A stretch of DNA of 64,000 nucleotides from a bacterium (GTDB lineage Bacteria; Patescibacteriota; Microgenomatia; JAMCZE01), in assembly GCA_021836035.1 (NCBI GenBank), contig JAKBJL010000001.1, positions 138,142 through 202,141 on the forward strand, in the 5' to 3' direction. This document shows positions 2,637-63,446 of the stretch, piece by piece (the stretch's first letter is position 1; the number at the start of each line of letters is the position of its first letter). The position numbers were made by a program, and so were the translations under genes. The notes under the pieces are model-generated. The model did not search any database and was not told the DNA's origin. It saw only the letters and a list, made by a program, of their open reading frames with translations.

Positions 2637-3319
2637 ATCCAAAATTGTTACTGGTAGCAAACTGGAAAGCTAATTTCCCCGCAGCCTGGTTCCGGGAATT
2701 TTCCCTTCTACCTGCCCAATTTTTAAGCTACCTGGATGTGGCTATCGCCCCGCCGTATCCCCATATTTCCGACGTTCCCCAAAATTTTATCCGCTGTGCC
2801 CAAGATCTATCGGCTTTTTCGCCCGGAGCCTACACCGGAGAGGTTCCGGCGAAACTATTGGCGGACTTAGGGGTTAAATATTGTCTGGTCGGCCATTCCG
2901 AGCGCCGAAAATACCTTGGCGAAACTACGGAAGCGATAGGGAAAAAGGCTCTACAAGCCCTAGAAAATCGGATTACCCCTATTGTTTGCGCCCGAAATTT
3001 TGAGGAAATCCCCCGGCTCGCTTCGCTGCCTCAGGACGGCCCGATGGTCATGTTTGAGCCCGAAGAAGCCATCAGCTCTCACGGCGAATATCACCCCGCA
3101 ACCCCGGAAGAAGTACGGCGGACCCTGGCGGAATGGCAACGGCAGCTTGGTCCGGGCATGCGTTTTCTTTACGGTGGGAGTATAAATCCCGATAACGTTT
3201 CCCGTTATCTGTCTTCCGATTTTCGTCCGCTGCTTTCCGGCTTCGTTATCGGCCATGCTTCCCTGGAAATGCAAACCTTTTTCGCGATTCTTAAACAATG
3301 TCTTCCTACCGTCTCTTAA
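2633..3319 (+). CDS. tpiA: Triosephosphate isomerase
   Basis: N-terminal VANWKAN and the catalytic GHSERR motif are present. Length is 228 aa. Start overlaps the upstream gene (ATGA). Confidence 0.85.
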   Translation: MNPKLLLVANWKANFPAAWFREFSLLPAQFLSYLDVAIAPPYPHISDVPQNFIRCAQDLSAFSPGAYTGEVPAKLLADLGVKYCLVGHSERRKYLGETTEAIGKKALQALENRITPIVCARNFEEIPRLASLPQDGPMVMFEPEEAISSHGEYHPATPEEVRRTLAEWQRQLGPGMRFLYGGSINPDNVSRYLSSDFRPLLSGFVIGHASLEMQTFFAILKQCLPTVS

Positions 3320-4881: not shown

Positions 4882-7809
4882 TTATTCTAACCAGACGTTA
4901 GCGCTCTTCCAGTGCACCCGGATTTTGACACCATAATTCCCCGGTGCGCTAACAGTGTAGGCCTGGCTGGCTTGATAGAAAACATTGCCGCCGGTGTCTT
5001 TTCCCGGTGCCCGGACGGTATTAACTATCTCGTTGGATACCTCCGTTCCGTCTTTAGTAATAATAAAGTTGATCTGGTCAATGCTGTCGGTACCGGAACT
5101 GACCCAGCCGAAACCGGTAAACGTTACCAGATCCCCTACCCGTACGGTACTTAAATCTTTGTCCGCCTGAACCAGCTGGCAGGCGGCAGTAACTGTCGGT
5201 GGCGGACTGGTAGAGATTGTCGGGGTAACCGGCGGAGTAGGGGAAAGAGTGGGCGCGGCGGAAACGGGAGGTACTACCTGAGCCGTCAGTTTACAAGAGG
5301 ATGCGTGGCCGCAAAGGAACCGCGGCGGGGCATCAACACAATCCGCCCGGCATTCACTGATCGCGTCGTTCCAGACCCGGCCGTAAACAACCGTGGTCCC
5401 CGCCTGGGTTGGAGTCCAGGTAAAGGTATAGGTTCCGGGCCCGCCGTGCTGCTGGGCATAAGGAATAACATTGTTGGAACAGGAATTGATGTAGCCGCTT
5501 ATCGCGACATCGGTAACCGTCCCGGCGGCCTGCAGGGAAAAAGTATAAGGGGTTCCGATCACCAAATTATTCAAGTCGGCGGTAGTGGTAAGGCTTGTGC
5601 AGTCCGGCGGCGGCGGTTGGGTAGAAACCGACGGTACAACACAGTCGCAGTTGTAATAAATGCCGCCGGCCATAATACTTCCGCCCGGTGGATAGGGAGC
5701 ATTCAGACAATCGAGCTGTACCACGGCACAGGTGGGATAGGTCGAAGTAATGACGCAGGATCCGGTACTACTAGTACAGGTGCCTACCTGACTACAGGAA
5801 ATATCCGGATTTTGGCAAGTACTGAGCTCCCCTACCAAATTGGGTCCGCAATTGCTGTCGCGGCACTTTAAACATTGATTCCAGCCGGCTTCGTCATGGC
5901 TAAACTGTTTAACCACTAAAGCTCCGTAATAGGTTTCCGAACCGCTACCGTTTGGTTGCCCTCCGCCGAAACAGAGGGTAGAGGCAGTATTGGAATCGGC
6001 GCGACTTCTGGTCTCCTGCTTCCGCTGGGTTAAGAAAATACCGCCGGCCAGCCCGCTCAATAAAACCAAAGCCGCTAAGGCAATTAACACCGTATTTTTC
6101 CCGTAGGGTGAGCTTTTGATCGGCGGAAGAACCACGGAAGGCATCTCGCTGCTTCCTGCCGGGCTAACGGTAGGAACTGCCTGCGCGGGAGGCGTTACCG
6201 GCTCCGGGGGCGGCGGAAGCGCGTTGGCAGTCAACGGTTTAACTTCCGCTACCGGTGGATTTGTTTCCGGTAAATCAGCTATCGAAGGTTTTTCGGGCGT
6301 TTCCGTTTTGGTAGGCCGCAGGAGTCGGTATAAACTGATGAGCACGACGCCCAGGGCAACCACAAGAACCACCACGCCCAACTTCGGAACGAAAGCCAGC
6401 ATGGCGATCACTCCAATAGTATACAGTCGGTTTCCGGCGATTGCACGCCGGGAGATTAACATTCCTGCTCCGGTAAGAAAAAAACCCAATACCGCCAAAA
6501 GTATCGTTTGCGCGGTAGCTCCGGATGTCGGGGCCCGAGGCGATGAGACCGGAACGGCTACCGGTGTAGGGCTCGGAGTCGGAATAGGAGTCGGCGAAAG
6601 ACGCGGCGTAGGAGAGGGACGGGGGGTCGGTGTGGGTGAAATCGCCGCCAGGCTGATCTGCCGTGGGGTCGGAAGGGGCGCAGCGCTGGGAGTGGCTGTC
6701 GTTGCCGGCAAAAGCGGTTCCTGGCCGGCGTTACCGGCGGCCTGAACCGCAAAAGTTCGGGTAATGGTCTGTTTTATACCGGAAGCATCGAGAAAGCTAA
6801 CCGTAATCGTATGTATACCGGGCGTCAGAACGCTGGACAAAACATAAGACCAGTTGCCGTCGGGTGCGGATTTGACCGAAGCGGAGATAACTCCCGCGGA
6901 ATGGATTTCAATCTGTAAAACCTTATTAGGCGGGGCCTTGCCGCGGAAAGTCGGCAGGGGATCGTTGATTACACCCTGATCCGCAGGACTGGAAATGGTC
7001 AGACCGGCTGAGGGGCTGGCCCCGCCCCTGGCGGGGCTTGCAACCTCCGGTGTCGGGCCAGGAGAAGCTATCGGCGCTGCTGTACACTGACCGCTCTTCC
7101 CCAGGGTGATATCCGGAAAGGGCTTGTCCAGACCGACAGTACAGTTAAGGGTAGCGGTTCCGTCTGGGCCTGCCTCGACCGTTAAAACTTCCGGGGTCTG
7201 TGGTCCGATCTCCGCAAAACCGCTCAGGTCTGCCGTCCGACCGGCGTTGACCATCATGAGAAAATTACCGTTGCTTTTTACCCGGGCAGAAAGCGGAGCC
7301 ATTCCGGGAATATCCAGATAAACAATCGCTCCCGAAGCGGGCGACCCGTCGCTTTTATAAACCGTGCCGTAAGCCGGATTGCCGACAGAGTCTGCTGCGG
7401 CAGGTACCCTAGCAGTACTAGCCTCATAGGGTTTATTGGTCAGCGGTTCTTTGCTGAAGTTTTCCGTGCCACTGATAACGGCAAAGGCATATTTGCTAGC
7501 CGGTTTTAAACCCGTAACCACAAAATAGTGGGTGACGTATCCCTGGGTTTTGAATAACCCGGAATCGCGTTCGTCGTTAACTTTCCGGCCATCGGTCAGA
7601 GAAATCACTCCGGTGGTCGCAGCATCCGTAAGGTAAGAAACGGTAAAGGTGTTATCGCTGATGTTGGTAATCCGGACGCTTTTAGGAACAGATCCCGGTG
7701 CCGCCCGGGAGGACAATTGACGGACTTGGCTAATAGCATAAACCGCGACGCCCAAAGCGAAGAGCAAAACAAGAAGGGCCAGGATCGTGGGTATGCGTAT
7801 CGGTTGCAT
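4882..7809 (-). CDS. Large (975 aa) surface protein: signal peptide, FN3/Ig-like domains, Pro-rich linkers, internal hydrophobic segments, C-terminal Cys-rich domain
   Basis: N-terminal signal MQPIRIPTILALLVLLFALGVAVYA. FN3-like stretch FTVSYLTDAATTGVISLTDG...YFVVTGLKPASKYAFAV. PT-rich stretches. About 40 Cys in the C-terminal third. Sits directly upstream of the LPXTG gene on the same strand. Confidence 0.6.
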   Translation of the reverse strand: MQPIRIPTILALLVLLFALGVAVYAISQVRQLSSRAAPGSVPKSVRITNISDNTFTVSYLTDAATTGVISLTDGRKVNDERDSGLFKTQGYVTHYFVVTGLKPASKYAFAVISGTENFSKEPLTNKPYEASTARVPAAADSVGNPAYGTVYKSDGSPASGAIVYLDIPGMAPLSARVKSNGNFLMMVNAGRTADLSGFAEIGPQTPEVLTVEAGPDGTATLNCTVGLDKPFPDITLGKSGQCTAAPIASPGPTPEVASPARGGASPSAGLTISSPADQGVINDPLPTFRGKAPPNKVLQIEIHSAGVISASVKSAPDGNWSYVLSSVLTPGIHTITVSFLDASGIKQTITRTFAVQAAGNAGQEPLLPATTATPSAAPLPTPRQISLAAISPTPTPRPSPTPRLSPTPIPTPSPTPVAVPVSSPRAPTSGATAQTILLAVLGFFLTGAGMLISRRAIAGNRLYTIGVIAMLAFVPKLGVVVLVVALGVVLISLYRLLRPTKTETPEKPSIADLPETNPPVAEVKPLTANALPPPPEPVTPPAQAVPTVSPAGSSEMPSVVLPPIKSSPYGKNTVLIALAALVLLSGLAGGIFLTQRKQETRSRADSNTASTLCFGGGQPNGSGSETYYGALVVKQFSHDEAGWNQCLKCRDSNCGPNLVGELSTCQNPDISCSQVGTCTSSTGSCVITSTYPTCAVVQLDCLNAPYPPGGSIMAGGIYYNCDCVVPSVSTQPPPPDCTSLTTTADLNNLVIGTPYTFSLQAAGTVTDVAISGYINSCSNNVIPYAQQHGGPGTYTFTWTPTQAGTTVVYGRVWNDAISECRADCVDAPPRFLCGHASSCKLTAQVVPPVSAAPTLSPTPPVTPTISTSPPPTVTAACQLVQADKDLSTVRVGDLVTFTGFGWVSSGTDSIDQINFIITKDGTEVSNEIVNTVRAPGKDTGGNVFYQASQAYTVSAPGNYGVKIRVHWKSANVWLE

Positions 7810-9562: not shown

Positions 9563-11251
9563 ATGAGCCAAACAATTGTACCGCCAATGAAAAACCTTTT
9601 CAACAACGGAAAGAGCTTGCTGTTCTTACGCCAGACCAACATTCTTTCCGCTGCCACGGTGATCGCCGCCGCGGTTCTTGCGGCCAAAATACTGGGTATC
9701 ATCCGCTATTGGCTGCTGGCAGTTTATATCCACCCTATCGCCGACCTGGATCTGTTTTTTGCTGCTTTCCGTATCCCCGACTTTATCTTTCAGGTCCTGG
9801 TCATGGGTACGCTTACGACCGCTTTTATCCCCGTCATTGCCGGTTTTTTAAGCTGCGGACAGCAGGAGAAAGCCTGGCGCGCCGCTTCTACCGTCATCAA
9901 CGCGGCTCTGGTTATTTTTGTCGTTTTAGCCAGCATCGCTTTTTTCTTCGCCCGCGATCTCTCCATTATTGTTGCTCCCGGTCTTTCCCAAAATCCCCAA
10001 AACCTTGTCGCGCTGACAAACCTCACAAGAATTATGCTTTCCGCCCAAATCTTCTTTATTCTTTCCAATTTCCTCTCCGCAATCATCCAATCCACCAAGC
10101 GTTTTCTCATCCCGGCCCTGGCCCCGGTCGCTTACAATTTCGGAATTATTATCGGCATCGTTCTGCTTTCTCCCTATATCGGCATTTACGGTCCCGCTTG
10201 GGGTGTCGTTTTGGGGACGCTTTTGCATTTTTTAATTCAGGTTCCCCTGATTAAGCATATCGGCCTGCGTTATGAGGCCAAAATCAACCTTGCCGACCCG
10301 GGGGTCCGCGAAATCGGCCGTCTCCTGGGACCGCGCACTTTTGGCCTGGCGGTAGCCCAAATCAGCTTTACCGTAGATACCGCCCTGGCCTCGCTCCTGG
10401 CTACCTCCTCGATTACTATTATTAATCTCTCCCAAGCGCTTCAGCAATTCCCGATCGGAATTTTCGGCGCGACGATCGCCCAGGCAGCTCTTCCTACTTT
10501 GTCTGAGGAACAAGCAAGGGAAAATCTGGACAATTTTAAAACCACCCTCCTGAACTCCTTTCATCAAATTCTCTTTCTGACGCTGCCGGCAACCGCCCTG
10601 ATTATCGTTTTGCGCATTCCCGTCGTGCGGTTGGCTTTCGGCGTCGGCAACAGCAATTTTCCCTGGCCCTTAACCGTTCTCACCGGCAAAACTTTGGCGG
10701 TTTTCGGCTTGGGCATTGTAGCCCAAAGCTTAGTCAATCTCCTGGTCCGCGCTTTTTATGCCCTAAGAGACAGCATCACTCCTGTCAAAATCGCCGTGGT
10801 CTCCTTCCTGGTCAATATCGTCTTAAGCCTGACGTTTATTGTTGTTTATAAACTTCCCGTCTGGGCGCTGGCTATCAGTTCCGTCAGCGGAGACCTGGTT
10901 TACTTTTTATTGCTTTTGGCCCTTCTTGATTACCGCCTGCATTTCAACCACCGCCAGCTCCTGTTCCCTGCCGTCAAAATGTTTTTGGCGGCCCTGGCCA
11001 CCGGGATCGCTCTTTATATTCCCATGAAGCTTTTGGACCAATTGGTTTTTGATACGACAAAAACCATCCCCTTAATTATGCTTACCGGTGTCGCCGGCGC
11101 CGTCGGCCTTTCCGTCTATCTTTTCCTTACCTGGCTTTTAGATATTCCGGAGCTTAAGGCTTTCCTGGGGCTAGTCCAGCGCCTGGGACAAATCCGGCAA
11201 ATTTTTACACCTCCGGCCGAAGTCTTGGAAGTGGTTGAAGAACATGGATAA
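9563..11251 (+). CDS. murJ: Lipid II flippase MurJ (MviN)
   Basis: 562 aa polytopic protein. FRIPDFIFQVLVMGTLTTAFIPV matches the MurJ N-terminal signature. Confidence 0.8.
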   Translation: MSQTIVPPMKNLFNNGKSLLFLRQTNILSAATVIAAAVLAAKILGIIRYWLLAVYIHPIADLDLFFAAFRIPDFIFQVLVMGTLTTAFIPVIAGFLSCGQQEKAWRAASTVINAALVIFVVLASIAFFFARDLSIIVAPGLSQNPQNLVALTNLTRIMLSAQIFFILSNFLSAIIQSTKRFLIPALAPVAYNFGIIIGIVLLSPYIGIYGPAWGVVLGTLLHFLIQVPLIKHIGLRYEAKINLADPGVREIGRLLGPRTFGLAVAQISFTVDTALASLLATSSITIINLSQALQQFPIGIFGATIAQAALPTLSEEQARENLDNFKTTLLNSFHQILFLTLPATALIIVLRIPVVRLAFGVGNSNFPWPLTVLTGKTLAVFGLGIVAQSLVNLLVRAFYALRDSITPVKIAVVSFLVNIVLSLTFIVVYKLPVWALAISSVSGDLVYFLLLLALLDYRLHFNHRQLLFPAVKMFLAALATGIALYIPMKLLDQLVFDTTKTIPLIMLTGVAGAVGLSVYLFLTWLLDIPELKAFLGLVQRLGQIRQIFTPPAEVLEVVEEHG

Positions 11252-13211
11252 TCCTTCGACTGCGCTCAGGACGGGTCCTTCGACTTCGCTCAAGACAAGC
11301 CTTCCCCGGTCTCTTATCCGCAATTTTTGCATCATCGCCCATGTGGATCACGGCAAATCCACTCTGGCTGACCGCTTTTTAGAAATTACCGGATCGGTCA
11401 GCAAAAGCGGCCATGCTGAGCAACTTCTCGATAACCACCCAATCTCCCGCGCCCGCGGCATCACTATCCGCCTCGCCCCCGTTACCATGCATTATTCCTT
11501 AATTCGCAATTCGCAATTAGATAATTATCAATTAAATTTGATTGATACTCCCGGCCACGTCGATTTCAGTTATGAAGTGGAACGGACGCTTTCCGCCTGC
11601 GAAGGAGCGATTTTATTAGTTGACGCCACCCAGGGTATCCAAGCCCAGACCCTTTCCCATTTTCAGAAAGCGCAAAAGTTGGGATTAACTATTATTCCCG
11701 TGATCAACAAAATCGATATGCCTAACGCACGGACTGCTGAAACAGAGAAAGACTTACATGAATTATTCAATTCGCAACCCCGCAATAGCGAGGTTCCGAG
11801 TGAAAACGAGGGACTGGATAATTCGCAATTCCCAATTCTTAAGGTTTCTGCCAAGACCGGAGAGGGAGTGCAGGGCTTATTGGAAGAAGTGATTAGGAAA
11901 GTGCCGCCTCCGGCCGGTAATCCCGATGGTCCGGCGCGCGCTCTGGTTTTTTCTTCCCAATTTGCTGCCCAAAAAGGTGTGACCGCATTTGTCCGAGTCT
12001 TTGACGGCAAGTTAGAAGGCCGCGGAAAAATCCGTTTTTTGGCCGCCGGACTGGAAGCAGCTGTTTTAGACCTGGGCCACTTTTCCCCGGCCATGCTCCC
12101 CACGGAGGCCCTCGGAACCGGAGAAGTTGGTTACCTTACCACCAATCTTAAAGATCCGTCGCTCGTCCGTGTCGGCGATACCATCACCACGGAAAATTCG
12201 CAATTCGCAATCCCTCGACAAGCTCGGGATTATCCCGAGCGAAGCCGAAGGACAATTCACAATTCGCAATTGATTCCGTTACCCGGTTACCGCGAAATAA
12301 AGCCCATGGTTTTTATCAGTCTTTTCCCGGTCGACCAGAACGATTACGCGCTTTTGGAGGACGCCCTGGAAAAATTAAAACTCAACGATGCAGCGCTAGC
12401 TTTTTCTCCCATGGGCTCTAAAGTCTTAGGCCGCGGGTTCCGTGCCGGATTTTTAGGGCACCTTCATGCCGAAGTTTCCCGGGAACGGCTGGAAACCGAT
12501 TTCGGGCTGAATGTTCTCGCCACCACCCCCACCGTTGAATACCGAATTCGCAATTCGCAATCTCTCGACAAGCTCGGGATTATCCTGAGCGAAACCGAAG
12601 GACAATTTGCAATTCGCAACTATGAGGAACCTTGGGTTTTAGCTACCGTCATCCTCCCCCAAAATTATGTCGGCCCCATAATGTCCCTGAGCAAAGATCA
12701 CCGGGGAATTTTAAAGAATATGGTTTATCACGGCAATAATGTCACTCTAACTTACGAAATCCCGCTGGGGGAAATTATTACCGATTTTTTTGACGAGTTA
12801 AAGTCGCGCACTTCCGGTTACGGCAGTCTCGATTATGAATTTTTGGACTACCGTCCTTTCGATGCCGTTACCCTGGAAATTTTAATTAACCACGAGGCGG
12901 TCGATGCCTTTTCCCAAATTCTGCCAAAGGAAAAAGCGGAAAGCTACGGCCGTTTTTTGGTGGAGAGACTAAAAGAAGCTATCCCCCGCCAACAAATCCC
13001 CATTATCATTCAAGCAGCCATAGATAACCAGATTATTGCCCGCGCCGATATTGCCGCTTACCGCAAAGACGTAACGGCCAAACTTTACGGCGGGGACCGC
13101 ACCCGCCGGGATAAACTGCTGGAAGCGCAAAGAAAGGGCAAAAAGAAAATGCGGCAGATCGGCCGCGTGCAAATCCCCGGCGACACTTTCCTCAAAATCT
13201 TTAAAACCTAA
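11235..13211 (+). CDS. lepA: Elongation factor 4 (LepA), 658 aa with several in-frame repeat-derived segments
   Basis: G-domain motifs AHVDHGKST, DTPGH and NKID, then the LepA C-terminal region. About 55 aa longer than typical LepA because of the repeat segments described separately. Confidence 0.9.
   Translation: MKNMDNPSTALRTGPSTSLKTSLPRSLIRNFCIIAHVDHGKSTLADRFLEITGSVSKSGHAEQLLDNHPISRARGITIRLAPVTMHYSLIRNSQLDNYQLNLIDTPGHVDFSYEVERTLSACEGAILLVDATQGIQAQTLSHFQKAQKLGLTIIPVINKIDMPNARTAETEKDLHELFNSQPRNSEVPSENEGLDNSQFPILKVSAKTGEGVQGLLEEVIRKVPPPAGNPDGPARALVFSSQFAAQKGVTAFVRVFDGKLEGRGKIRFLAAGLEAAVLDLGHFSPAMLPTEALGTGEVGYLTTNLKDPSLVRVGDTITTENSQFAIPRQARDYPERSRRTIHNSQLIPLPGYREIKPMVFISLFPVDQNDYALLEDALEKLKLNDAALAFSPMGSKVLGRGFRAGFLGHLHAEVSRERLETDFGLNVLATTPTVEYRIRNSQSLDKLGIILSETEGQFAIRNYEEPWVLATVILPQNYVGPIMSLSKDHRGILKNMVYHGNNVTLTYEIPLGEIITDFFDELKSRTSGYGSLDYEFLDYRPFDAVTLEILINHEAVDAFSQILPKEKAESYGRFLVERLKEAIPRQQIPIIIQAAIDNQIIARADIAAYRKDVTAKLYGGDRTRRDKLLEAQRKGKKKMRQIGRVQIPGDTFLKIFKT
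11247..11295 (+). repeat. Imperfect ~20-bp tandem direct repeat inside the lepA N-terminus
   Basis: CCTTCGACTGCGCTCAGGAC / CCTTCGACTTCGCTCAAGAC encodes PSTALRTG-PSTSLKTS. It sits in front of the conserved IRNFCIIAHVDHGKST start of the G domain. Confidence 0.7.
11501..11518 (+). repeat. (AATTCGC)x2.5 heptanucleotide tandem repeat inside lepA
   Basis: aattcgcaattcgcaatt, translated in frame as LIRNSQL. Confidence 0.8.
11768..11837 (+). repeat. Degenerate AATTCGC-type repeats flanking a ~13-aa extra segment in lepA
   Basis: caattcgcaaccccgcaat ... aattcgcaattcccaatt encodes NSQPRNSEVPSENEGLDNSQFPI. This lies between NKID and SAKTG, a stretch about 13 aa shorter in typical LepA. Confidence 0.65.
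12195..12271 (+). repeat. 77-bp palindrome-containing mini-element, copy 1, in frame in lepA
   Basis: AATTCGCAATTCGCAAT, then ccctcgacaagCTCGGGATtATCCCGAGcgaagccgaagg, then ACAATTCACAATTCGCAATT. Heptad repeats flank a perfect 8+1+8 palindrome. Encodes NSQFAIPRQARDYPERSRRTIHNSQL, about 18 aa more than orthologs have between GDTIT and LPGY. Confidence 0.8.
12544..12620 (+). repeat. 76-bp mini-element, copy 2 (about 93% identical to copy 1), in frame in lepA but read in a different frame
   Basis: gaattcgcaattcgcaatctctcgacaagctcgggattatcctgagcgaaaccgaaggacaatttgcaattcgcaac encodes IRNSQSLDKLGIILSETEGQFAIRN. Confidence 0.8.
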
Positions 13212-13252: not shown

Positions 13253-14113
13253 ATGCGGCGGTTGTTAATTTGTTCTTTATTTCTCGTCCTTAGCGGTTAC
13301 ATTATTAATTTAGCCAAAAATGATCATGTAGCATTAGCGGCAGAAAACCCCGGCCAATTCCGTTGTCTCTGGTACACATCCGGTTCGAGCTATTGTGGCA
13401 CGGACATAAACGGAAATTCCTGTCAGTCGGGATATAGTGAAGTTCCCCAAATTTGTCTGGAAATAAAAAACCCCTCGGAATGTGACTCCGCTTCCTTTGG
13501 TTGTGTAGAAAAAGCCGGACCCCGGTATAGTTGTAAAAAGAATCAGGGGTGTGTACAGGACCCAAACGGTTACGATAGTTTGACTTCTTGCCAAAATACC
13601 TGTAAAGAACTCGGGGCTGTTAAATGTCCTGAAGGGTGTACCACATATGGCTTGGGTAGCGTCTGCTATGCAGAACCATTAGATATACTTCTTCCGAAAC
13701 CCTGCGAGAGCACTCTCTGTATCCCCTCGGCCGGAGATAAATACACTCAGTATTACTATGATCAAAAAAGTAAGTTTTGTTACTCCGTCAGGCGTGATTT
13801 GAGTCCGGTTTTTCTTTGCGTCGAAGACGGTAGTTGCCAAACCGCTATCGGCACAATATTCGCCAGCCCCGAGGATTTGGTTAAAGTCATTATGCAACTA
13901 GTGATAGGGTTGGTCGGGGGCGTTGCGCTTCTAGTGCTAATTTTAACCGGTTATCAGCTAATGACCTCCTCCGGTGATCCGCAAAAATTAGCGGTTGCTA
14001 AAGAACTAATTGTTTCCGTTATAACCGGTATTCTCATGATCGTTTTTTCCATGGTATTATTACAGGCAATCGGAGTGGATATCTTAAAAATTCCCGCGCT
14101 GGTCGCGCCCTAA
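13253..14113 (+). CDS. Secreted Cys-rich protein with a C-terminal two-helix VirB2/TrbC-like pilin module
   Basis: Signal peptide and about 26 Cys, then GLVGGVALLVLILTGYQLMTSSGDPQKLAVAKELIVSVITGILMIV. This C-terminus is paralogous to the three downstream small proteins. Confidence 0.5.
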   Translation: MRRLLICSLFLVLSGYIINLAKNDHVALAAENPGQFRCLWYTSGSSYCGTDINGNSCQSGYSEVPQICLEIKNPSECDSASFGCVEKAGPRYSCKKNQGCVQDPNGYDSLTSCQNTCKELGAVKCPEGCTTYGLGSVCYAEPLDILLPKPCESTLCIPSAGDKYTQYYYDQKSKFCYSVRRDLSPVFLCVEDGSCQTAIGTIFASPEDLVKVIMQLVIGLVGGVALLVLILTGYQLMTSSGDPQKLAVAKELIVSVITGILMIVFSMVLLQAIGVDILKIPALVAP

Positions 14114-14114
14114 A

Positions 14115-14465
14115 ATGAGATTCCCGGGTTTTAGAACCATCGAGCTGCCCAACGGCTTCCCTACCGGAGGCTTGAGTATTATTGCTACGATCATCGTCAA
14201 TTTAGTATTGCTAGCCCTGATTATTATCTTTATTCTCGCCTTTTCTTACCTGGTTATCGGCGGTCTTAAGTGGATTGCCTCCGGCGGCGACAAACAAGCC
14301 CTTGCTTCCGCCCGGTCTGCTATTACTTATGCTGTACTTGGACTTGTACTTGCGCTGGTTTCTTTTGCCATAATTAACTTTGTCTCCTGCTTTTTTGGCA
14401 TTTATCTTGGTTTAGGAGGTGGCTGTTGGTCTACTGCCCAAATTACCCATGGGCTTACTCCATAA
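14115..14465 (+). CDS. Small two-helix membrane protein, VirB2/TrbC-like pilin candidate (paralog 2)
   Basis: A hydrophobic helix, a loop (IGGLKWIASGGDKQALASARSAI), a second helix, and a GLTP terminus. Starts 1 nt after the upstream stop. Confidence 0.5.
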   Translation: MRFPGFRTIELPNGFPTGGLSIIATIIVNLVLLALIIIFILAFSYLVIGGLKWIASGGDKQALASARSAITYAVLGLVLALVSFAIINFVSCFFGIYLGLGGGCWSTAQITHGLTP

Positions 14466-14485
14466 AACTATTATTAGTCACTTCT

Positions 14486-14518
14486 TGACAGCCTCCGAAA
14501 ATCATGCCATATTAAATA
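14486..14518 (+). promoter_or_regulatory. Candidate sigma70-like promoter for the third pilin-like gene
   Basis: TTGACA at 14486-14491 and an extended TATTAAAT -10 element about 17-19 nt downstream. A GAAGGGGG ribosome-binding site sits ahead of the ATG at 14575. Confidence 0.3.
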
Positions 14519-14574
14519 TAGACGAGAAGCAGGGTCCAGTTATGCTACAACCATAAGTGGCGAAGGGGGTGAAT

Positions 14575-15003
14575 ATGAGAGATTTAAGAAAATTAATTAC
14601 TACCGCTACAATATTAGCCAGCGGCTTATATTTTGCTGCGCCCGTTTTTGCCCAAAATATAAATCTTTGCCCCACTAACGGTGGTAACCTATGCTCGCTC
14701 ACGATCCCTGCGGTTATTACCGGTCTTATCCAATTTGTTTTAATAGTCGCTTTCCTTCTGGCCTTTGCCTTTCTAGTCATGGGAGGCATTAGGTGGATTT
14801 TAAGCGGTGGCGATAAAGCAGGAACGGAAGCGGCCAAGGGGACTATCACTGCGGCTCTTATCGGCCTAATTGTTGTCCTGGTTGCTTGGGCTATTCTCAA
14901 TTTGGTTAAAACTTTCTTTGGCATTAATTTTGATCTCGGTTCATTGGCCATACCAACCATAACCAATCCGGCAACAAATCCTAACCACGGAATAACCCCA
15001 TAG
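14575..15003 (+). CDS. VirB2/TrbC-like pilin candidate (paralog 3) with a cleavable signal peptide
   Basis: MRDLRKLITTATILASGLYFAAPVFA signal, then FLVMGGIRWILSGGDKAGTEAAKGTITAALIGLIVVLVAWAI. Start moved to the ATG that has a ribosome-binding site; the listed ORF starts at an upstream GTG. Confidence 0.5.
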   Translation: MRDLRKLITTATILASGLYFAAPVFAQNINLCPTNGGNLCSLTIPAVITGLIQFVLIVAFLLAFAFLVMGGIRWILSGGDKAGTEAAKGTITAALIGLIVVLVAWAILNLVKTFFGINFDLGSLAIPTITNPATNPNHGITP

Positions 15004-27434: not shown

Positions 27435-28178
27435 CTACCTTCCTCCTAATTTTCTGAATTTTATCACGTATTGTTCCAGTCCGCCAAGACCGGAGATACG
27501 AAACTGTTGATAAATAGCCAATAAACTGCTTACCGACCAATATAAAGCCAGTCCCGCGGGCCATTGTGTCCCCAAGAACAGAAACATCAGGGGGAACATC
27601 CAGATCATGGAAGACTGCGCTTCGGCAAATTCGCCCATGAAATCACTTTTCTCTTGTTTTTCTGCGGGCTTATCTTCTTTTCTAATCTTGGGGGCTGTGG
27701 GCATCATCATTTTGGTCTGGATAAATTGAGTCAGGGCGGCGATGACTACTAAAATTCCGGGTACGGCAATCGGTATGCCGGTAAGATGATAAGCGTCAGG
27801 TTTAGCCATATTCCAAACAAAAAACTCCGTATTTACTTTCATACTCAAAATTCTACTGAGAGCACCTAAAAGACCGAAAAGAATAACTATCTGGACAATA
27901 CTGGGAAGGCAGCCGGCCGCGGGGTTAACTCCGTGTTGTTTAAAAAGATCCATTTGGGCGGTAGCGAATGCCTGCTGGTTGCCTTTATGTTTTTCCTTGA
28001 GGGCATTAATATGCGGCTGCAGCTCAGACATTTTTTTACTGTATTGCACTTGCTGTTTGATAACCGGATAAAAAATAAGGCGGGAAAGAACGGCAATCTC
28101 CACAATAGCAACTCCCAGATTATGAAAACCCACCGTGCTGTAAATGAAGAGAACAATTTGTAAAAAAAACTCCGTCAT
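27435..28178 (-). CDS. yidC: Membrane protein insertase YidC/Oxa1 (short Gram-positive type)
   Basis: 247 aa with 5 TM helices. Conserved gene context yidD-yidC-jag. Confidence 0.8.
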   Translation of the reverse strand: MTEFFLQIVLFIYSTVGFHNLGVAIVEIAVLSRLIFYPVIKQQVQYSKKMSELQPHINALKEKHKGNQQAFATAQMDLFKQHGVNPAAGCLPSIVQIVILFGLLGALSRILSMKVNTEFFVWNMAKPDAYHLTGIPIAVPGILVVIAALTQFIQTKMMMPTAPKIRKEDKPAEKQEKSDFMGEFAEAQSSMIWMFPLMFLFLGTQWPAGLALYWSVSSLLAIYQQFRISGLGGLEQYVIKFRKLGGR

Positions 28179-28191
28179 TAAAATTTAGTAA

Positions 28192-28443
28192 TTATAAATT
28201 AGAAATTCCCGGAACCGGGTCGTTGCCTCCTTTGTTCCAGGGATGGCAGCGGATAATACGTTTTAGGCCCAGCCAAAGCCCCGGAATTGTACCATATTTT
28301 TCTACCGCTAGATAGGTATATTCACTGCAGGTTGGAATGAAACGGCAGGCCTTGTCGGTTAAAAACAATAAACGGAAGACTCCGCCGTCAAAAGAGAGAT
28401 ACTTCTGGTAAAAACGAATTAGGAACAAAACGAGATTCCGCAC
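28192..28443 (-). CDS. yidD: Membrane protein insertion efficiency factor YidD
   Basis: CRFIPTCSEYTYLAVEKYG...RCHPWNKGGNDPVP matches the YidD signature. Confidence 0.8.
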   Translation of the reverse strand: MRNLVLFLIRFYQKYLSFDGGVFRLLFLTDKACRFIPTCSEYTYLAVEKYGTIPGLWLGLKRIIRCHPWNKGGNDPVPGISNL

Positions 28444-28463
28444 TCCTGTATTATAATAGTTTT

Positions 28464-28805
28464 TTAAGAAAGAAGCTGGGCGCGGTGCAAAATCTTTTCC
28501 ACCTCCTGAGTTATCTCGATTCTGGCAGTCGTCGCCGCTTTAGTTTTTGCTAAAAAAACCAGTTCGGTGTTTTGGGGTATCCGGTTAAGAAAAGGGTCTA
28601 CGGCGTCCGCTAGTTTCCTTTTAATCTCATGGCGAACCACGGATTTTTTATCCACCTTTTTACTGACGATAAAGGCAGCTTGGCGGCCTGGGACTTTGCC
28701 GTAAGAAACCAGCAAACCAAAAGAGGGGGAATCATACAATTTCCCGGATTTACGGATGCGCTTAAATTCTCTCCTTAAAGGAATCAGATTTTTACGGGGA
28801 AGCAT
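28464..28805 (-). CDS. rnpA: RNase P protein component
   Basis: 113 aa basic protein. LRREFKRIRKSGKLYDSPSFGLLV...AAFIVSKKVDKKSVVRHEIKRKLA is RnpA-like. Confidence 0.8.
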   Translation of the reverse strand: MLPRKNLIPLRREFKRIRKSGKLYDSPSFGLLVSYGKVPGRQAAFIVSKKVDKKSVVRHEIKRKLADAVDPFLNRIPQNTELVFLAKTKAATTARIEITQEVEKILHRAQLLS

Positions 28806-28870
28806 TTATAACTACTAATGGCAAATAGCCGTTGGCCAACAGCCTTGGGCCGCCTGCCTTAAACTGTTTA

Positions 28871-29008
28871 CTATATGGTTATTCGTTTTCTTCCTTTAAG
28901 CGTTCTCCGATGCATGAGCTTGCGCCCGCTATGTGTAGCGTTGCGCTGAAGAAAGCCGTGTTTTCTCTGTCTTTTTAATTTTTTCGGCTGCCAGACTCTT
29001 TTGGGCAT
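28871..29008 (-). CDS. rpmH: 50S ribosomal protein L34
   Basis: MPKRVWQPKKLKRQRKHGFLQRNATHSGRKLMHRRTLKGRKRITI, 45 aa, too short for the ORF track. Found by manual translation upstream of rnpA. Confidence 0.8.
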   Translation of the reverse strand: MPKRVWQPKKLKRQRKHGFLQRNATHSGRKLMHRRTLKGRKRITI

Positions 29009-29087
29009 AGCCTAATTATATCCGGCCGTTCTCTGCGAGACAATAGTGTCTTTGGCAATTTGTTATAGTTCTGCCCACTTGAAAAAA

Positions 29088-29096
29088 TGTGGATAA
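29088..29096 (-). promoter_or_regulatory. Consensus DnaA box in the dnaA promoter region
   Basis: tgtggataa, the reverse complement of TTATCCACA, lies 19 nt upstream of the dnaA start. Confidence 0.55.
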
Positions 29097-29114
29097 CTTG
29101 TAAGATGCCGTCGT

Positions 29115-30503
29115 ATGAACCCCGGCGATATTTGGAAAACGGTTCTGGCGGAAATTGAAGTAGACCTGGGGAAAAGCACGACCAAAATTAACTTCAGTAA
29201 CAGCCGGCTTTTATCCCTGGAAAAAGGTATTGCCAGGATATCGCTGGCAACCAATTTAGCCCGGGAAACCGTGGAAAAAAGATATTATGTTCTGCTGCAA
29301 AATGCCCTCGAACGACAAAGCAAAGAAAAATTATCGCTTGTTTTTGAAGTAATCAAACCGGAGCTGGCCGCTCCCGCCGGACCACTCTTTGAAACCCTCA
29401 ACTTTCCGGAACAGGTCAATAAACCGGATATCAGCCGGACAGACAGTTTTAATCTGTCCAATACCGAAGAACAATACCGTAAAACCGGTCTCAATCCCAA
29501 GTACAGTTTAAAATCTCTGGTGGTCGGCGCCAGCAACAATTTTGCACACGCCGCGGCTATGACCATCTGTAAAAACCCCGGGAAAGAATATAATCCCTTC
29601 TTTATTTACGGCGGAGTCGGAGTTGGTAAAACCCACCTTATGCAGGCCATCGGCAATGAACTTTTTGTCCGCAACTCTAATCTGCGGATTTTATACATAA
29701 CCGCCGAGCATTTTATGAACGATCTAGTCGCCTCTTTACAACAAAAAACTATGCCTGCTTTCAAGAAACGCTATCGGGAAGTCGATGTTTTATTAGTGGA
29801 CGATATCCAGTTTATTTCCAAAAAAGAAGCTATGCAGGATGAGTTTTTCTATACTTTTAATTCCTTATTTATGGGCGAGAAGCAGATTATTCTTACCTCC
29901 GATCGGCCGCCGCAAGAAATCCAGGTCGAGGACCGGCTTCTTTCGCGCCTGATGGGCGGTTTAGCCGCAGATATTCAAACTCCTGATCTGGAAATGCGCA
30001 TCGCTATTATTAAACAAAAATTATCCGCCCGGCGAGAAAACTGGGATGAGGCTTCGATAGAATACCTGGCTACCCGTTTGGAAAACAACATCCGGGAAAT
30101 TGAAGGTGCTATGCAAAAAATTATGGCCGTCTCCCAGTCCGCAAACACGCCGGTAAATTTGGATTTGGTTAAAAAAGCCCTGGGAGTAGCCAACGGCCTC
30201 GATAAGCCCCCGGTTCCGGCTTCGCCGCAAAAAATTATCTCCGCGGTTTCCAAAGTCTTCGGGATTAAACAGGGAGATATTCTTTCCGATAAGCGCGATG
30301 CGGAATTTGTTTTACCCAGGCAGGTAATCATGTTCCTTTTACGGACGGATTGCCGGATTAAACTGGAAGAGGTTGCCCGGATTATGAAACGCAAAGACCA
30401 TACGACGGTTATCCACGCCGTGGGGAAAATTGAGAAACAGTTTGCGGATAATCAACAGCTAAGGCAACAGATTTTGTTGATAAAACGGGAAGTTTGGGGA
30501 TAA
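29115..30503 (+). CDS. dnaA: Chromosomal replication initiator DnaA
   Basis: AAA+ Walker A GGVGVGKTHL, Walker B LLVDDIQF, and a C-terminal DNA-binding domain (TDCRIKLEEVARIMKRKDHTTVIHAV). Confidence 0.9.
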   Translation: MNPGDIWKTVLAEIEVDLGKSTTKINFSNSRLLSLEKGIARISLATNLARETVEKRYYVLLQNALERQSKEKLSLVFEVIKPELAAPAGPLFETLNFPEQVNKPDISRTDSFNLSNTEEQYRKTGLNPKYSLKSLVVGASNNFAHAAAMTICKNPGKEYNPFFIYGGVGVGKTHLMQAIGNELFVRNSNLRILYITAEHFMNDLVASLQQKTMPAFKKRYREVDVLLVDDIQFISKKEAMQDEFFYTFNSLFMGEKQIILTSDRPPQEIQVEDRLLSRLMGGLAADIQTPDLEMRIAIIKQKLSARRENWDEASIEYLATRLENNIREIEGAMQKIMAVSQSANTPVNLDLVKKALGVANGLDKPPVPASPQKIISAVSKVFGIKQGDILSDKRDAEFVLPRQVIMFLLRTDCRIKLEEVARIMKRKDHTTVIHAVGKIEKQFADNQQLRQQILLIKREVWG

Positions 30504-30761
30504 CTTACCCAAACTGTCCACAAACTGCCGGGAATTATCCACAAAGATATCAACAAGAAAAGTTCAATTATCAACAGAGATAATCTTAAGCTTAAAGCTA
30601 ATAGTTAATGGCTAATAGGTTAATAGATGACAAGAACAAAATAAAATGCATTTATCAACATTATAAATCAGACTGGCCAGGCTGGGCTGCCCACAAATAC
30701 ACAAAGACTACTAACAAACAAATACTAATTGTAAATAGGAAAGGGGGCGGCTAAGATTACA
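30504..30761 (+). promoter_or_regulatory. Candidate oriC: a DnaA-box cluster plus an AT-rich unwinding region in the dnaA-dnaN spacer
   Basis: Perfect TTATCCACA at 30537-30545. Box variants TGTCCACAA (30516-30524), TTATCAACA (30569-30577 and 30652-30660) and ATATCAACA. An AT-rich tract at 30585-30670. Confidence 0.6.
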
Positions 30762-31901
30762 ATGATGAAACTAGAAATATTACAGGAAAATTTGCTGAAG
30801 GGTCTCTCTATGGTAGGACGGGTGATCACTTCCAAGCCGCAAATGCCCGTACTGGCAAACATTCTATTGGAAACCGATAACGGCAGATTAAAACTCAGCG
30901 CTACGGATTTGGAAATCAGCATTACCACCTTAATCGGAGTCAAAATTCTTAAAGAAGGCAAATATACCATTCCGGCTAAAACTTTCGCGGAACTGGTCGG
31001 TAGCCTGCCTCCCGGGAAAGTGGAGATGGAATTAGAAGAAGGCCAGTTGGCGATAACCGCCGGCCGGTTTAAAGCCAAAGTTAACGGTGTACCGGCGCAG
31101 GAGTGGCCACTAAAGGCGATGGAAGGTAAAAAAACCGCAGGTTGGAAATTGGAAATCGCCGCGGAGGAATTCATTGTCGGTGTTGCCTGTACTTCCTTTG
31201 CTGCCGCCGCAGACGAGGGTCGGCCTGTACTTACCGGAATCTTATTTAAATTAACCGATTCCGGTTTAACCATGGTGGCTACTGACGGTTTTCGCTTATC
31301 GGTAAAAAAACTGGCAGCCGTAAAGGCGGAAGGAAAAGGGGAAGAAACAAGATCCTTTATTATTCCAGTGAAAGCGCTACAGGAGGTTGCCCGCATTTTG
31401 AGCGAGAATAAAGAATTAAAGATATTAAAAATCAATCTTACGGAAAACAGCGCGGATTTTGATTTGGGAGATACCCAGCTTTCTGCCCGTTTAATTGAGG
31501 GGCTTTATCCTGCATATGAAAAGATTATTCCCGGCGCTCCGGTGATTAAAGCCCGGGTCGGACGGGAAGAATTAGCTTCCGGGATCCGGACAGCCGGGGT
31601 TTTTGCCCGCGACAGCGCTAATATCGTCAAATTTGTTTTAAACAAATCTCAATTTTTAGTCAAAGCGGTAGCCGCTCAAGTAGGAGAGAATGAAAGCGAA
31701 ATTGACGCTAAAATCGAAGGGATAGAAGAGGAATTGGCAATTGCTTTTAATTTCCACTATCTATTGGATCTTTTAAATTGTGCCGGGAAAAGCGAAGAAC
31801 TGACTTTGGGTTTTTCCGGTCCTCTGGCCGCCGGGATGTTTAAAATCTCCGACGATCAGAGCTTCCTGCATATTATTATGCCTGTTCGGGTGCAGAGCTA
31901 G
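30762..31901 (+). CDS. dnaN: DNA polymerase III beta sliding clamp
   Basis: MKLEILQENLLKGLSMVGRVI...LANILLE...LKLSATDLE, a three-domain 379-aa protein. Lies next to dnaA. Confidence 0.85.
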   Translation: MMKLEILQENLLKGLSMVGRVITSKPQMPVLANILLETDNGRLKLSATDLEISITTLIGVKILKEGKYTIPAKTFAELVGSLPPGKVEMELEEGQLAITAGRFKAKVNGVPAQEWPLKAMEGKKTAGWKLEIAAEEFIVGVACTSFAAAADEGRPVLTGILFKLTDSGLTMVATDGFRLSVKKLAAVKAEGKGEETRSFIIPVKALQEVARILSENKELKILKINLTENSADFDLGDTQLSARLIEGLYPAYEKIIPGAPVIKARVGREELASGIRTAGVFARDSANIVKFVLNKSQFLVKAVAAQVGENESEIDAKIEGIEEELAIAFNFHYLLDLLNCAGKSEELTLGFSGPLAAGMFKISDDQSFLHIIMPVRVQS

Positions 31902-46543: not shown

Positions 46544-47629
46544 TTAACTGTTAAAGTCCAACCCCGGGTCAGCGTCAACTTTTCCGACAGGAACCGGATG
46601 GTGATTAAAATAAGCCGCGGAGGCGATATAGGCTGCGTTGTCGGTGCATAACTTTATCTTGGGAACATGAATTGCGAATTGCGAACCGTCAAATTGCGAA
46701 TTAAGTTTCTCGCGGAGGCGGGAATTAGCTGCGACGCCGCCGGCCAACAGAACGGACCGGGTACGGAATTTTTCCGCCGCCCGGAGGGTTTTATATACCA
46801 GGACATCGGTGACGGACTCCTGCAGCTCAGCAGCCAGGGCTGATGAAAAGAAGATTTCTTCTGCAGAAGAAATCTTCTTTTTTAGCTCATTAGCCACCGC
46901 AGTTTTGAGGCCGCTGAAACTGAAGTCAAATTGCTTGTCATAAAGCAACGGACGGGGCAATTTAATTTGGAATTTGGAATTTGGAATTTGGAATTTGGAA
47001 GCCGCAGCTTCTATTGCCGGGCCGCCGGGGTAGCCGAGGTTTAACAGCCGGGCACATTTGTCAAAACATTCGCCCGCAGCATCGTCCCGGGTCCCCCCAA
47101 GCCGTTTAAATTTTCCATGGTTTTCCATAAGCACTAATTCCGTATGGCCGCCGCTGACAATAAGAACGACGGCGGGGAATTCCGGCCTCGGGCTATTTGC
47201 CCCGCCCAGCCAATTCGCATAAATGTGGCCGACCAAATGGTTAACGGGAACAAGCGGTTTATTCCAGGCAAGGGCTAAGGCCTTGGCTGTTTCCACGCCG
47301 ACGAGTAAACTGCCGATCAGACCGGGACCGACGGTCACGGCAAGGGCATCTATATCAGAGGCTAGCGGATGGCGGTAAGTATATAGACCGGGTAATATTT
47401 TTTCTTTACGCTTTACGCTAAACGCTTTACGCTCCGGATTTAAGGCTTCATTTATCACCGGAATAATCGCCCTAATTTGTTCCCGCGCGGCTTGTTCGGG
47501 AATAATCCCGCCGTATTTGGCGTGAATTTCCTGCGAACTGGCAACCACATTAGAAACAATTTCCGTGCCATCTTTTACGATAGCAGCTGCCGTTTCGTCA
47601 CAGGAGGTCTCGATAGCGAGGATTGTCAT
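46544..47629 (-). CDS. tsaD: tRNA N6-adenosine threonylcarbamoyltransferase TsaD (Kae1/Qri7 family), with in-frame heptad-repeat segments
   Basis: MTILAIETSCDETAAAIV start. HxxGH metal site (NHLVGHIYANWL). SGGHTELV, GYPGGPAIE, LCTDNAAYIA. 361 aa against about 335-340 for typical orthologs. Confidence 0.85.
   Translation of the reverse strand: MTILAIETSCDETAAAIVKDGTEIVSNVVASSQEIHAKYGGIIPEQAAREQIRAIIPVINEALNPERKAFSVKRKEKILPGLYTYRHPLASDIDALAVTVGPGLIGSLLVGVETAKALALAWNKPLVPVNHLVGHIYANWLGGANSPRPEFPAVVLIVSGGHTELVLMENHGKFKRLGGTRDDAAGECFDKCARLLNLGYPGGPAIEAAASKFQIPNSKFQIKLPRPLLYDKQFDFSFSGLKTAVANELKKKISSAEEIFFSSALAAELQESVTDVLVYKTLRAAEKFRTRSVLLAGGVAANSRLREKLNSQFDGSQFAIHVPKIKLCTDNAAYIASAAYFNHHPVPVGKVDADPGLDFNS
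46669..46702 (-). repeat. (GCAATTC)-type heptad repeats inside tsaD, the same family as the lepA repeats
   Basis: Plus strand gaattgcgaattgcgaaccgtcaaattgcgaatt; the minus strand encodes LNSQFDGSQFAI. Confidence 0.75.
46964..46998 (-). repeat. (AATTTGG)x5 heptanucleotide tandem repeat inside tsaD
   Basis: Five perfect tandem units; the minus strand encodes SKFQIPNSKFQIK. Confidence 0.85.
47404..47433 (-). repeat. (CTTTACG)x4 heptanucleotide tandem repeat inside tsaD (one unit CTAAACG)
   Basis: Encodes ERKAFSVKRKEK. It lies within a segment of about 24 aa that is absent from typical TsaD, between the ALNP and DIDALAVTVGPG regions. Confidence 0.8.
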
Positions 47630-54955: not shown

Positions 54956-55807
54956 ATGCAGTTAAAGCGCAACCAGATTAAAACCCTGGCCTATTCCGAC
55001 TTATTTAACTATCCCCTAAGCGGCAAAGAGCTGAAACTTTGGGAAATCTCCGTGGGCCAGAAGGAGTCGGGTGAAAGCAAAATAAAAACCGGGCACCGCG
55101 ACGGCTTTTATTTTTTGCCCGGAAGAGCGGGCTTAGTGAATTTGCGCCGGGAGAGAGAAAAATATACGGCGGAGAAAAGGGTAAAAGGACAGGATGTTGC
55201 CAGGGTTCTGCAACGGATTCCTTTTGTTCGGGCAATATTTTTAACCGGCTCGGTTGCCGCCGGCAGCGCGGAGGAAAACGCAGATATTGATTTAATGATT
55301 GTGGTTCAACCCGGAGCCTTATGGCTGACCAGGCTTTCCGTCGTTACCTACCTGAAAATTAAAGGAATTTATTCGGGCCGGACTGGCCATAACCGGAATA
55401 AAATTTGCCCGAATATTTTTTTAGACCTAAATCATTTGCCAATTGCCGAGAGAAATTTATTCACGGCGCATGAAGTGTTACAGGCCCAGTGTCTTTTCGA
55501 TCGGGGAGGAATAGAAAAGCTGTGGTTTAAGAAAAACCCCTGGACAAGGGAATTTTTACCGAACATTTTTCAGCTTAAAGTAAAAGGCTTAAAGCAAATA
55601 GCCAAAACCAGGAATGCAGGCAGGGGGGACTTTTTGTGGTATCTAATTCTCCCCCTTGAGCTTTTAGCCTTTAGCCTCCAGTTGGTTTATATGAAGCCGA
55701 AGATGACAAACGAAAATGTTGGACTGGGTTTTGCTTTCTTCCATCCGCGGAATATTTCCGCTATTATTTTGCAACAATGGCAAAAAAGACTAGAATTACT
55801 AAAGTGA
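54956..55807 (+). CDS. Nucleotidyltransferase-fold protein
   Basis: A GS...D.D signature (FLTGSVAAGSAEENADIDLMIVV). Confidence 0.5.
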   Translation: MQLKRNQIKTLAYSDLFNYPLSGKELKLWEISVGQKESGESKIKTGHRDGFYFLPGRAGLVNLRREREKYTAEKRVKGQDVARVLQRIPFVRAIFLTGSVAAGSAEENADIDLMIVVQPGALWLTRLSVVTYLKIKGIYSGRTGHNRNKICPNIFLDLNHLPIAERNLFTAHEVLQAQCLFDRGGIEKLWFKKNPWTREFLPNIFQLKVKGLKQIAKTRNAGRGDFLWYLILPLELLAFSLQLVYMKPKMTNENVGLGFAFFHPRNISAIILQQWQKRLELLK

Positions 55808-60852: not shown

Positions 60853-60856
60853 AAGG

Positions 60857-60943
60857 CGGAAGGTACAGGATTCGAACCTGTGTGAGCCTATTCGGCTCAA
60901 GGGGTTAGCAACCCCTCGCTTTGGGCCACTCAGCCAACCTTCC
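60857..60943 (-). tRNA. tRNA-Ser (anticodon GCU)
   Basis: Manual fold: acceptor GGAAGGT/ACCTTCC, a Ser-type D-arm, anticodon loop TTGCTAA, a long variable arm (TGAGCCGAATAGGCTCAC), T-arm ACAGG-TTCGAAT-CCTGT, discriminator G. 87 nt. Confidence 0.8.
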
Positions 60944-63201: not shown

Positions 63202-63446
63202 CATCGCGGAAACCCAGTTCAGAAACCCTCTGGATTAGCTGTATCGAATAAGACAAACCAGGAGATCCAAACCCATTGCCGACAAATAGCCAGCAACCTA
63301 ATCTCTGTCGGGGTTTCTAACACGAACATCCTCCACCTGTATCCCCCGAAAACAATCGGTGTAGTCAATAATCCGACCGCAATTAGGAATAGACCGGAAG
63401 CACCGATTGATTTGACCAAGGAAACTAAATATACTATTCATAGTTC

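Follow-up and report, generated by a model that had tools for sequence, protein, structure and literature searches.

The question raised by this locus is why a lepA gene should begin with two near copies of one short segment. The locus is in a 64,000-nt stretch of contig JAKBJL010000001.1 (assembly GCA_021836035.1, positions 138,142–202,141 of the forward strand), which comes from a bacterium of the Microgenomatia (Patescibacteriota). This whole stretch is termed the window, and positions are numbered within it. The lepA coding sequence is on the + strand at positions 11244–13211 and encodes a 655 aa translation factor, LepA (EF4). Analysis of open reading frames (ORFs), Pfam, PDB and an AlphaFold2 model shows five in-frame inserts in it that are derived from repeats. 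The first of these is a 57-nt segment (positions 11253–11309, 19 codons) that consists of about 2.4 head-to-tail copies of a 24-nt unit. It is situated between lepA codons 3 and 4, immediately 3' of the overlapping murJ stop codon. The unit resembles small dispersed repeats (SDR) and repetitive extragenic palindromic (REP) sequences, and it is probable that the array represents an insertion into the 5' end of lepA that is tolerated as a passenger tail of the protein.

The 5' end of lepA reads ATG GAT AAT, followed by CCTTCGACTGCGCTCAGGAC GGGT, CCTTCGACTTCGCTCAAGAC AAGC, CTTCCCCGG and TCT CTT ATC CGC AAT TTT. Repeat unit N1 (CCTTCGACTGCGCTCAGGAC plus GGGT, positions 11253–11276, + strand) encodes PSTALRTG, and unit N2 (CCTTCGACTTCGCTCAAGAC plus AAGC, positions 11277–11300, + strand) encodes PSTSLKTS; both were delimited from the window sequence and by repeat searches. 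The 20-mers that head the two units, at positions 11253–11272 and 11277–11296, are identical at 18 of 20 positions, and at 19 of 24 (79%) when the 4-nt spacers are included, with a period of exactly 24 nt. They are the only matches to each other at ≤3 mismatches in the 64 kb, where 0.01 would be expected from shuffled sequences. The similarity is far above chance. An initial sequence-only reading had described an imperfect 20-bp direct repeat encoding PSTALRTG-PSTSLKTS at 11247–11295; the repeat itself and its reading frame are as described, and only the coordinates were a few bases off. A probable partial third unit, CTTCCCCGG (positions 11301–11309, + strand), encodes LPR. It is deduced from comparison with the empty site in relatives, discussed below, and is only weakly similar to the start of a unit.

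The identity of the gene is well supported. The Pfam families GTP_EFTU (PF00009), EFG_C (PF00679) and LepA_C (PF06421) are matched by an identical protein, and solved LepA structures are matched with a best E value of 5e-167 (2ywe). The protein has the G1 motif AHxDHGKST, the DTPGH and NKxD motifs and both the EFG_C and LepA_C domains, and every column that is invariant in the family is retained. The nearest LepA sequences are only 64–70% identical, as found in a search of 5.8 billion clusters, and the same 655 aa product is encoded on five contigs of 0.2–1 Mb. LepA had been referred to as essential, which does not hold for E. coli, where strains without lepA show no obvious growth defect (PMC4245954, PMC4324249). 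The protein is thus conserved, yet non-essential in that species, and a reduced importance of lepA may contribute to the tolerance of inserts.

Comparison of the murJ-lepA junction with that of relatives reveals where the array entered. Three relatives (L247, L248 and L249) have the same S20-murJ-lepA gene order, and in all of them the murJ stop overlaps the lepA start as well. The murJ gene of the window (positions 9563–11251) ends in ...H G and the stop codon TAA (positions 11249–11251, + strand), within the junction cATGGAtaa; the insert begins 1–2 bases past this stop. The lepA ATG (positions 11244–11246, + strand) overlaps the last murJ codons. The corresponding junction in L248 is aATGGAtcaacaacaaattag (aATGGAtca), in which the murJ product ends in ...N G S T T N before the stop, and the lepA product starts with M D Q Q Q I R N F. 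The ATGGAT of the window aligns with the ATGGAT of L248, and the extra 57 nt come after codon 3. This alignment makes the ATG at 11244, which is homologous to the relatives' start codon, the ancestral one. The relatives have the empty site, and the array is a genuine insertion that precedes the G1 motif.

The protein alignment agrees with this. Among 119 homologues, 114 have no more than 10 residues (median 6) before the R of the IRNF motif, compared with 25 residues in the protein encoded in the window. This agrees with the initial reading, in which orthologues begin close to the G domain and the repeat is inserted ahead of G1; the alignment and the empty site of the relatives indicate an insertion and neither an ancestral extension nor a mis-called start. 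The other five homologues have longer N-termini (15–72 residues). Repeat-like sequence is absent from four of them, which may be mis-called starts, and the fifth is the distant Gottesmanbacteria LepA P0116, considered below. There is no in-frame ATG, GTG or TTG between position 11247 and the G1 motif, so that the segment is necessarily translated if the protein is made, and a downstream alternative start was rejected for the same reason. Another possibility is that a formerly intergenic array became coding when an original start at CTT 11301 was lost. This is less likely, since the junction is homologous to that of relatives and MurJ has kept its length. The insert would thus be translated as a 19-residue tail, Ser/Thr/Pro-rich and slightly basic, before strand beta-1 of the G domain.

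The initial reading had counted at least five repeat-derived in-frame segments in lepA, and this count was borne out. Besides the N-terminal array there are four internal segments, all on the + strand. The insert lengths are 57, 18, 75 and 75 nt, and every copy is open in the frame that is used. Repeat searches reveal an 18-nt array of heptamers only, (AATTCGC)x2.6, at positions 11501–11518, which encodes IRNSQL. A degenerate composite at approximately 11768–11838, recognized by repeat and alignment comparison, has partial heptamers around a 42-nt core; its right arm and the arms of the two 75-nt elements are about 75% identical (15/20, counted by hand). The first 75-nt composite (25 codons, positions 12195–12269) consists of (AATTCGC)2.4, a hairpin and (AATTCRC)2.x; it is read in phase 0 and encodes the peptide NSQFAIPRQARDYPERSRRTIHNSQ. 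The second (25 codons, positions 12545–12619) is 93% identical to the first but is read in phase 2, giving the peptide IRNSQSLDKLGIILSETEGQFAIRN. The different reading phases are due to the spacing of 350 nt between the two elements. The hairpin of these elements is formed by two inverted unit-like arms with a core stem of 8 bp. It is plausible that the internal elements were copied within the gene, by gene conversion between heptamer arrays or by templated repair. A composite of the same architecture is found in a metagenome-assembled genome of the Planctomycetaceae (L020, positions 6224–6296), where AATTCGC heptamers surround inverted CCYTCGAC...GCTCRGG arms (CCCTCGACTTCGCTCGGGAC / CCTGAGCCTGTCGAAGGG). 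In this clade such repeats seem to accumulate time and again in the loops of LepA; at the protein level, the variable loops of relatives hold unrelated inserts.

The AlphaFold2 model, for which 120 sequences were used, has a mean pLDDT (predicted local distance difference test) of 84.9 and a TM score of 0.91–0.92 to the Aquifex aeolicus LepA structure (2ywe). Confidence is below approximately 65 at residues 1–20, which represent the N-terminal tail. Values are also low at residues 181–200 (56–74, the degenerate composite), residues 321–340 (46–52, the element at 12195–12269) and residues 441–460 (55–62, the element at 12545–12619). Residues 611–620 near the C-terminus have a mean pLDDT of 63, and there is no insert there. 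For the heptamer-only insert the model is confident and shows a strand-turn-strand stretch (residues 80–99). The model thus places the tail and three of the internal inserts in low-confidence surface loops, with the fold predicted to be undisturbed. Crystal structures of ribosome-bound EF4 fused at its N-terminus to L9 are known (4w2e, 5j8b), which indicates that N-terminal additions need not block ribosome binding.

The 24-nt unit is not restricted to the N-terminus of LepA. Its consensus, CCTTCGACTTCGCTCAGGAC plus ARGC, is equivalent to eight codons, and five of its six reading frames are free of stop codons. The reverse complement of the unit matches the right arms of the hairpin elements at 12195–12269 and 12545–12619 at 81–85%. 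A metagenome scan for CCYTCGACTNCGCTCRRGAC gave at least 120 loci. The matches listed include 93 copies of the type found in lepA, termed type B (CCTTCGAC...CAGGAC); in these the 24-nt block is conserved and the flanks are not, and the contigs that carry them range from 31 to 70% in GC content. A complete scan of viral contigs gave 69 stretches with the unit. Some copies of the unit are single, others form REPIN-like inverted doublets at fixed offsets (-46, -47 and -51, mostly on GC-rich contigs), and others again form direct arrays with a period of exactly 24 nt. Such exact tandem arrays are present in two other genomes, with three copies in L212 and two in L214. The array in L212 is intergenic, upstream of a 409-aa ORF, and one of its copies is identical to N2 at 23 of 25 positions, spacer included. 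In L188 the peptide PSTSLRTG is inserted within an ORF of 508 codons, in the same frame as in LepA. As no orthologue has a copy of the segment, and matches are found in hairpin arms, in at least 120 metagenome loci and in 69 viral stretches, the unit is not sequence derived from LepA. Among the papers searched, none was found that mentions the unit sequence or its peptides.

The LepA of P0116 (L003, positions 3001–3060) has one similar unit just after the start codon, very close to the N-terminal position of the array in the window. This unit, TCCTTCGATAAAACTCAGGACG, is identical to N1 at 18 of 24 positions, and it is read in another frame (SFDKTQD). It suggests recurrent insertion at a permissive site and not common ancestry.

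Two other interpretations of the unit were considered and rejected. The unit could represent the loop of variable hairpins, and there are striking cases (L139 and L148), but the lengths of the flanking stems are nearly equal to those of the control. Inverted units exactly 1292 nt apart in three viral contigs were at first compatible with a parent insertion sequence; these are really REPIN-like doublets that bracket a phage capsid gene. The GC-rich doublets of unit variants flank the capsid-like gene in L255 (positions 183–245 and 1440–1506) and also in L263 and L314, and the three contigs are related.

Heptamers are the second component of the lepA inserts, although the N-terminal array has no heptamer flanks. 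The window has seven period-7 arrays, compared with 0.4 in shuffled sequences; other periods are not enriched. Counts on the same contig were extended to 80.9 kb, comprising the window together with L319 and L320 (contig DAHXMT010000002.1), which add 17 kb of flank. In these 80.9 kb there are five AATTCGC arrays in lepA and one in tsaD. Among the matches listed (at least 120 loci), (AATTCGC)n is found in Nostoc, Calothrix, Planctomycetes, Holophagae, Anaerolineae, Acutalibacteraceae, Microgenomates and Peregrinibacteria. The lepA genes of relatives (L245, L246 and L003) also have period-7 arrays, with other heptamers such as GAAATTG, TCACATG and CTCAGTT.

Several further repeats of this kind were observed. 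In Nostoc spp. (L008, L026, L032, L072 and L076), (AATTCGC)n arrays are broken by inserts of 23–34 nt that end in ...CGCTAACGC or ...GCGAACGC, a layout that resembles the one published for small dispersed repeats nested in heptamers. The tsaD gene of the window (positions 46544–47629, - strand) has three in-frame period-7 arrays, at 46669–46702 (AATTCGC type), 46964–47000 and 47404–47433, and a perfect 36-nt palindrome at 46846–46881. In a comparison with Thermotoga maritima TsaD (6nak), three of the four repeats coincide with extra residues; the array at 46669 aligns without a change in length. There is an in-frame (TTGGAAA)x2.1 at 31142–31156 in dnaN, which gives WKLEI in DnaN, and an in-frame (CTTTCCG)x5.3 at 55836–55872 in the N-terminal region of an ORF with a SpoIID domain (positions 55777–57543).

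A sequence of events that is consistent with these observations can be proposed. A 24-nt SDR/REP-like unit would have inserted into the 5' end of lepA, immediately beyond the murJ stop codon. One inserted unit then most likely gave rise to about 2.4 copies by slipped-strand or unequal-recombination amplification, as in the arrays of 24-nt period in other genomes. Because the unit measures eight codons and is free of stops in five of its six frames, such an array keeps the frame, and because there is an ATG upstream and no other start, it would be translated as a tail. The tail may have persisted in that the frame is kept and only residues predicted to be disordered are added. Like the other inserts of the gene, it would be a tolerated passenger without a required function.

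Several points weigh against this proposal. The repeats are clustered in one gene and are not visibly dispersed in the 80.9 kb, where all four unit-like sequences (≤4 mismatches) are in lepA. Nothing that could mobilise the repeats, such as a transposase, was identified in the available sequence; among the genes with Pfam annotation on L001, L319 and L320, the one transposase-like match is a faint one to HTH_Tnp_1. Translation of the tail is something we infer from the sequence, and its neutrality is assumed, from predicted disorder and from non-conservation in relatives. With 5 of 24 positions different between the two copies, local amplification is indistinguishable from two separate insertions or from the entry of a ready-made array. 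With the nearest LepA at the distance given above, there is no close relative by which to date the insertion.

The same arrangement has other potential explanations. An exact head-to-tail repeat, in frame and with a 24-nt period, could also result if slippage had duplicated LepA's own N-terminal coding sequence with no repeat family involved, and slippage is the simplest path from one copy to two. This is close to the initial reading, which proposed a recent tandem duplication. The head-to-tail in-frame repeat stands, but not its derivation from LepA: no orthologue has a native single copy of the 8-aa segment, and unrelated genomes contain the 20–24-nt unit, which also makes up hairpin arms at other places in lepA. 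With copies just 79% identical over 24 nt, the duplication is also not obviously recent. An origin of the unit from LepA's own sequence is therefore largely refuted, and we regard this explanation as very improbable. A different possibility is that the insert has the origin proposed above but that the tail has since been co-opted, perhaps to modulate protein stability or the way in which the G domain contacts the ribosome or membrane, and is kept by selection. The open reading frame, the position of the tail next to the G domain, the identical sequence on five contigs and the unit at the same place in a second lineage, P0116, are consistent with such a role. The extension is however absent from 114 of 119 homologues, the model shows low confidence and no contacts for it, and the P0116 unit is read in another frame to give a different peptide, which argues against selection on the peptide. 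Co-option is thus considered unlikely.

The repeats could also act as nucleic acid, either as an operator that binds a protein or as an RNA element that tunes the translational coupling of murJ and lepA, with translation of the repeats being incidental. They are located exactly at the junction of the murJ stop and the lepA start. The fold of the 5' region is less stable than that of shuffled sequence (z = +1.5), as is expected of an open initiation region. The search for a known RNA family gave no Rfam match at the gathering score or at E values up to 5, promoter- and terminator-like sites do not exceed their frequency in shuffled sequences, and the unit is found in many unrelated contexts, both intergenic and within long ORFs. 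A role at the nucleic acid level therefore appears improbable. Lastly, the genome is metagenome-assembled and assemblers can stumble on short repeats, so that an assembly error, or a mis-called start, might have created a tail that is not real. Here the identical 655 aa product on five large contigs, the intact frame and a start that is homologous to that of relatives and has no alternative make an artefact extremely unlikely. The insertion of an SDR/REP-like unit array, tolerated as a passenger tail, is the explanation we favor.

The tail alone is of minor interest. The context is more useful, as there are five inserts in one translation factor of a reduced genome of the Candidate Phyla Radiation (CPR). 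What is less ordinary is the clustering of the five inserts in lepA and the presence of the 24-nt unit across very different genomes. A broader and rather doubtful proposal is that the 24-nt unit and the 75-nt composite constitute an active, ultra-small and SDR-like mobile family that crosses phyla, spreads via heptamer homing or templated repair and has a hotspot in lepA. If this were correct, a length of 8 or 25 codons with few stop codons would allow the family to colonise coding sequence, and new surface peptides would repeatedly arise from it in the streamlined proteomes of CPR bacteria. Mobility of the repeats would extend to Patescibacteria the concept of selfish DNA inside protein-coding genes, which is known from Rickettsia and hinted at in Nostoc. 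It would also help to explain odd low-complexity peptides in metagenomes such as PSTSLRTG, FDFAQDK, LRLRSGQA and PERSRR. For annotation, caution is indicated in that such segments are insertions and not domain features.

Other features of the neighborhood were noted. Three small genes similar to T4SS_pilin are directly 3' of lepA (positions 13253–15003). T4SS_pilin genes are also found 3' of lepA in relatives, directly in L245 and past several other small genes in L249. A replication-origin neighborhood at 27435–31901 has yidC-like and rnpA-like genes, dnaA (positions 29115–30503) and dnaN (positions 30762–31901), with AT-rich short tandem repeats in spacers at 28177–28207 and 30597–30725. A tmRNA gene (positions 62847–63204, 113.8 bits) adjoins smpB (positions 62380–62817), and a tRNA-Ser(GCT) gene is at 60855–60943.

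How do the lepA repeats compare with known systems? Their closest analogues are Rickettsia palindromic elements (RPEs) and the small dispersed repeats of Nostoc. RPEs were reportedly described by Ogata and co-workers in Science in 2000 (volume 290, page 347). In a later account, RPEs are hairpin-capable repeats found in frame in unrelated housekeeping genes, where they are translated and are compatible with the protein fold (PMC10969869). According to the same account, they are approximately 100–150 bp, confined to Rickettsia and dispersed across many genes (PMC10969869). The lepA inserts are similar in that they are in frame, a multiple of three in length, stop-free and, as judged from the sequence, translated, and in that the model puts four of the five in predicted surface loops. 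They differ in size, with a unit of 24 nt and a composite of 75 nt, and in that the unit spans very different genomes. The lepA copies are also confined to one gene within the 80.9 kb, whereas RPEs are dispersed.

Small dispersed repeats of 21–27 nt nested in tandem heptamers are said to have been reported from Nostoc by Elhai and colleagues in Genome Research in 2008 (volume 18, page 1484). The 2008 SDR paper of Elhai et al. is cited in PMC3116915, and heptamer STRR (short tandemly repeated repetitive) sequences are known from Calothrix (PMC4692102). The lepA unit is likewise a tiny conserved block of 24 nt with non-conserved flanks, as seen in the 93 type-B copies among the matches listed. 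A hairpin is nested in a heptamer array in the 75-nt elements of lepA and in L020, and the heptamer AATTCGC is common to lepA and to the Nostoc arrays with inserts of 23–34 nt. The differences are the CPR (Patescibacteria) host and the position of the lepA copies, which are intragenic and would be translated. The lepA core is also unlike the Nostoc inserts in sequence, and the N-terminal array is without heptamers.

REP and REPIN sequences are mobilised by RAYT (REP-associated tyrosine transposase) proteins; REPs are extragenic and species-specific, with a GTAG-type head and a RAYT gene (PMC3116915). The 24-nt unit resembles them as a short imperfect palindrome that forms inverted doublets (-46, -47 and -51) in GC-rich genomes, and two inverted arms form a hairpin in lepA. 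In contrast, the lepA copies are intragenic, the unit spans genomes of 31–70% GC and no RAYT gene was seen in the sequence available. PMC4692102 notes that heptanucleotide simple sequence repeats were reported in 2007 to be over-represented in bacteria (its reference 33). The enrichment of period 7 in the window, which is also present in the lepA of relatives, is in line with this, although the repeats in the literature are mostly intergenic and the lepA arrays are short, in-frame and coding. The lepA repeats are not a demonstrated member of any of these families, and the likeness to RPEs and SDRs is one of description. By analogy, they may be regarded as functionally RPE-like repeats that also have SDR-like and REPIN-like properties.

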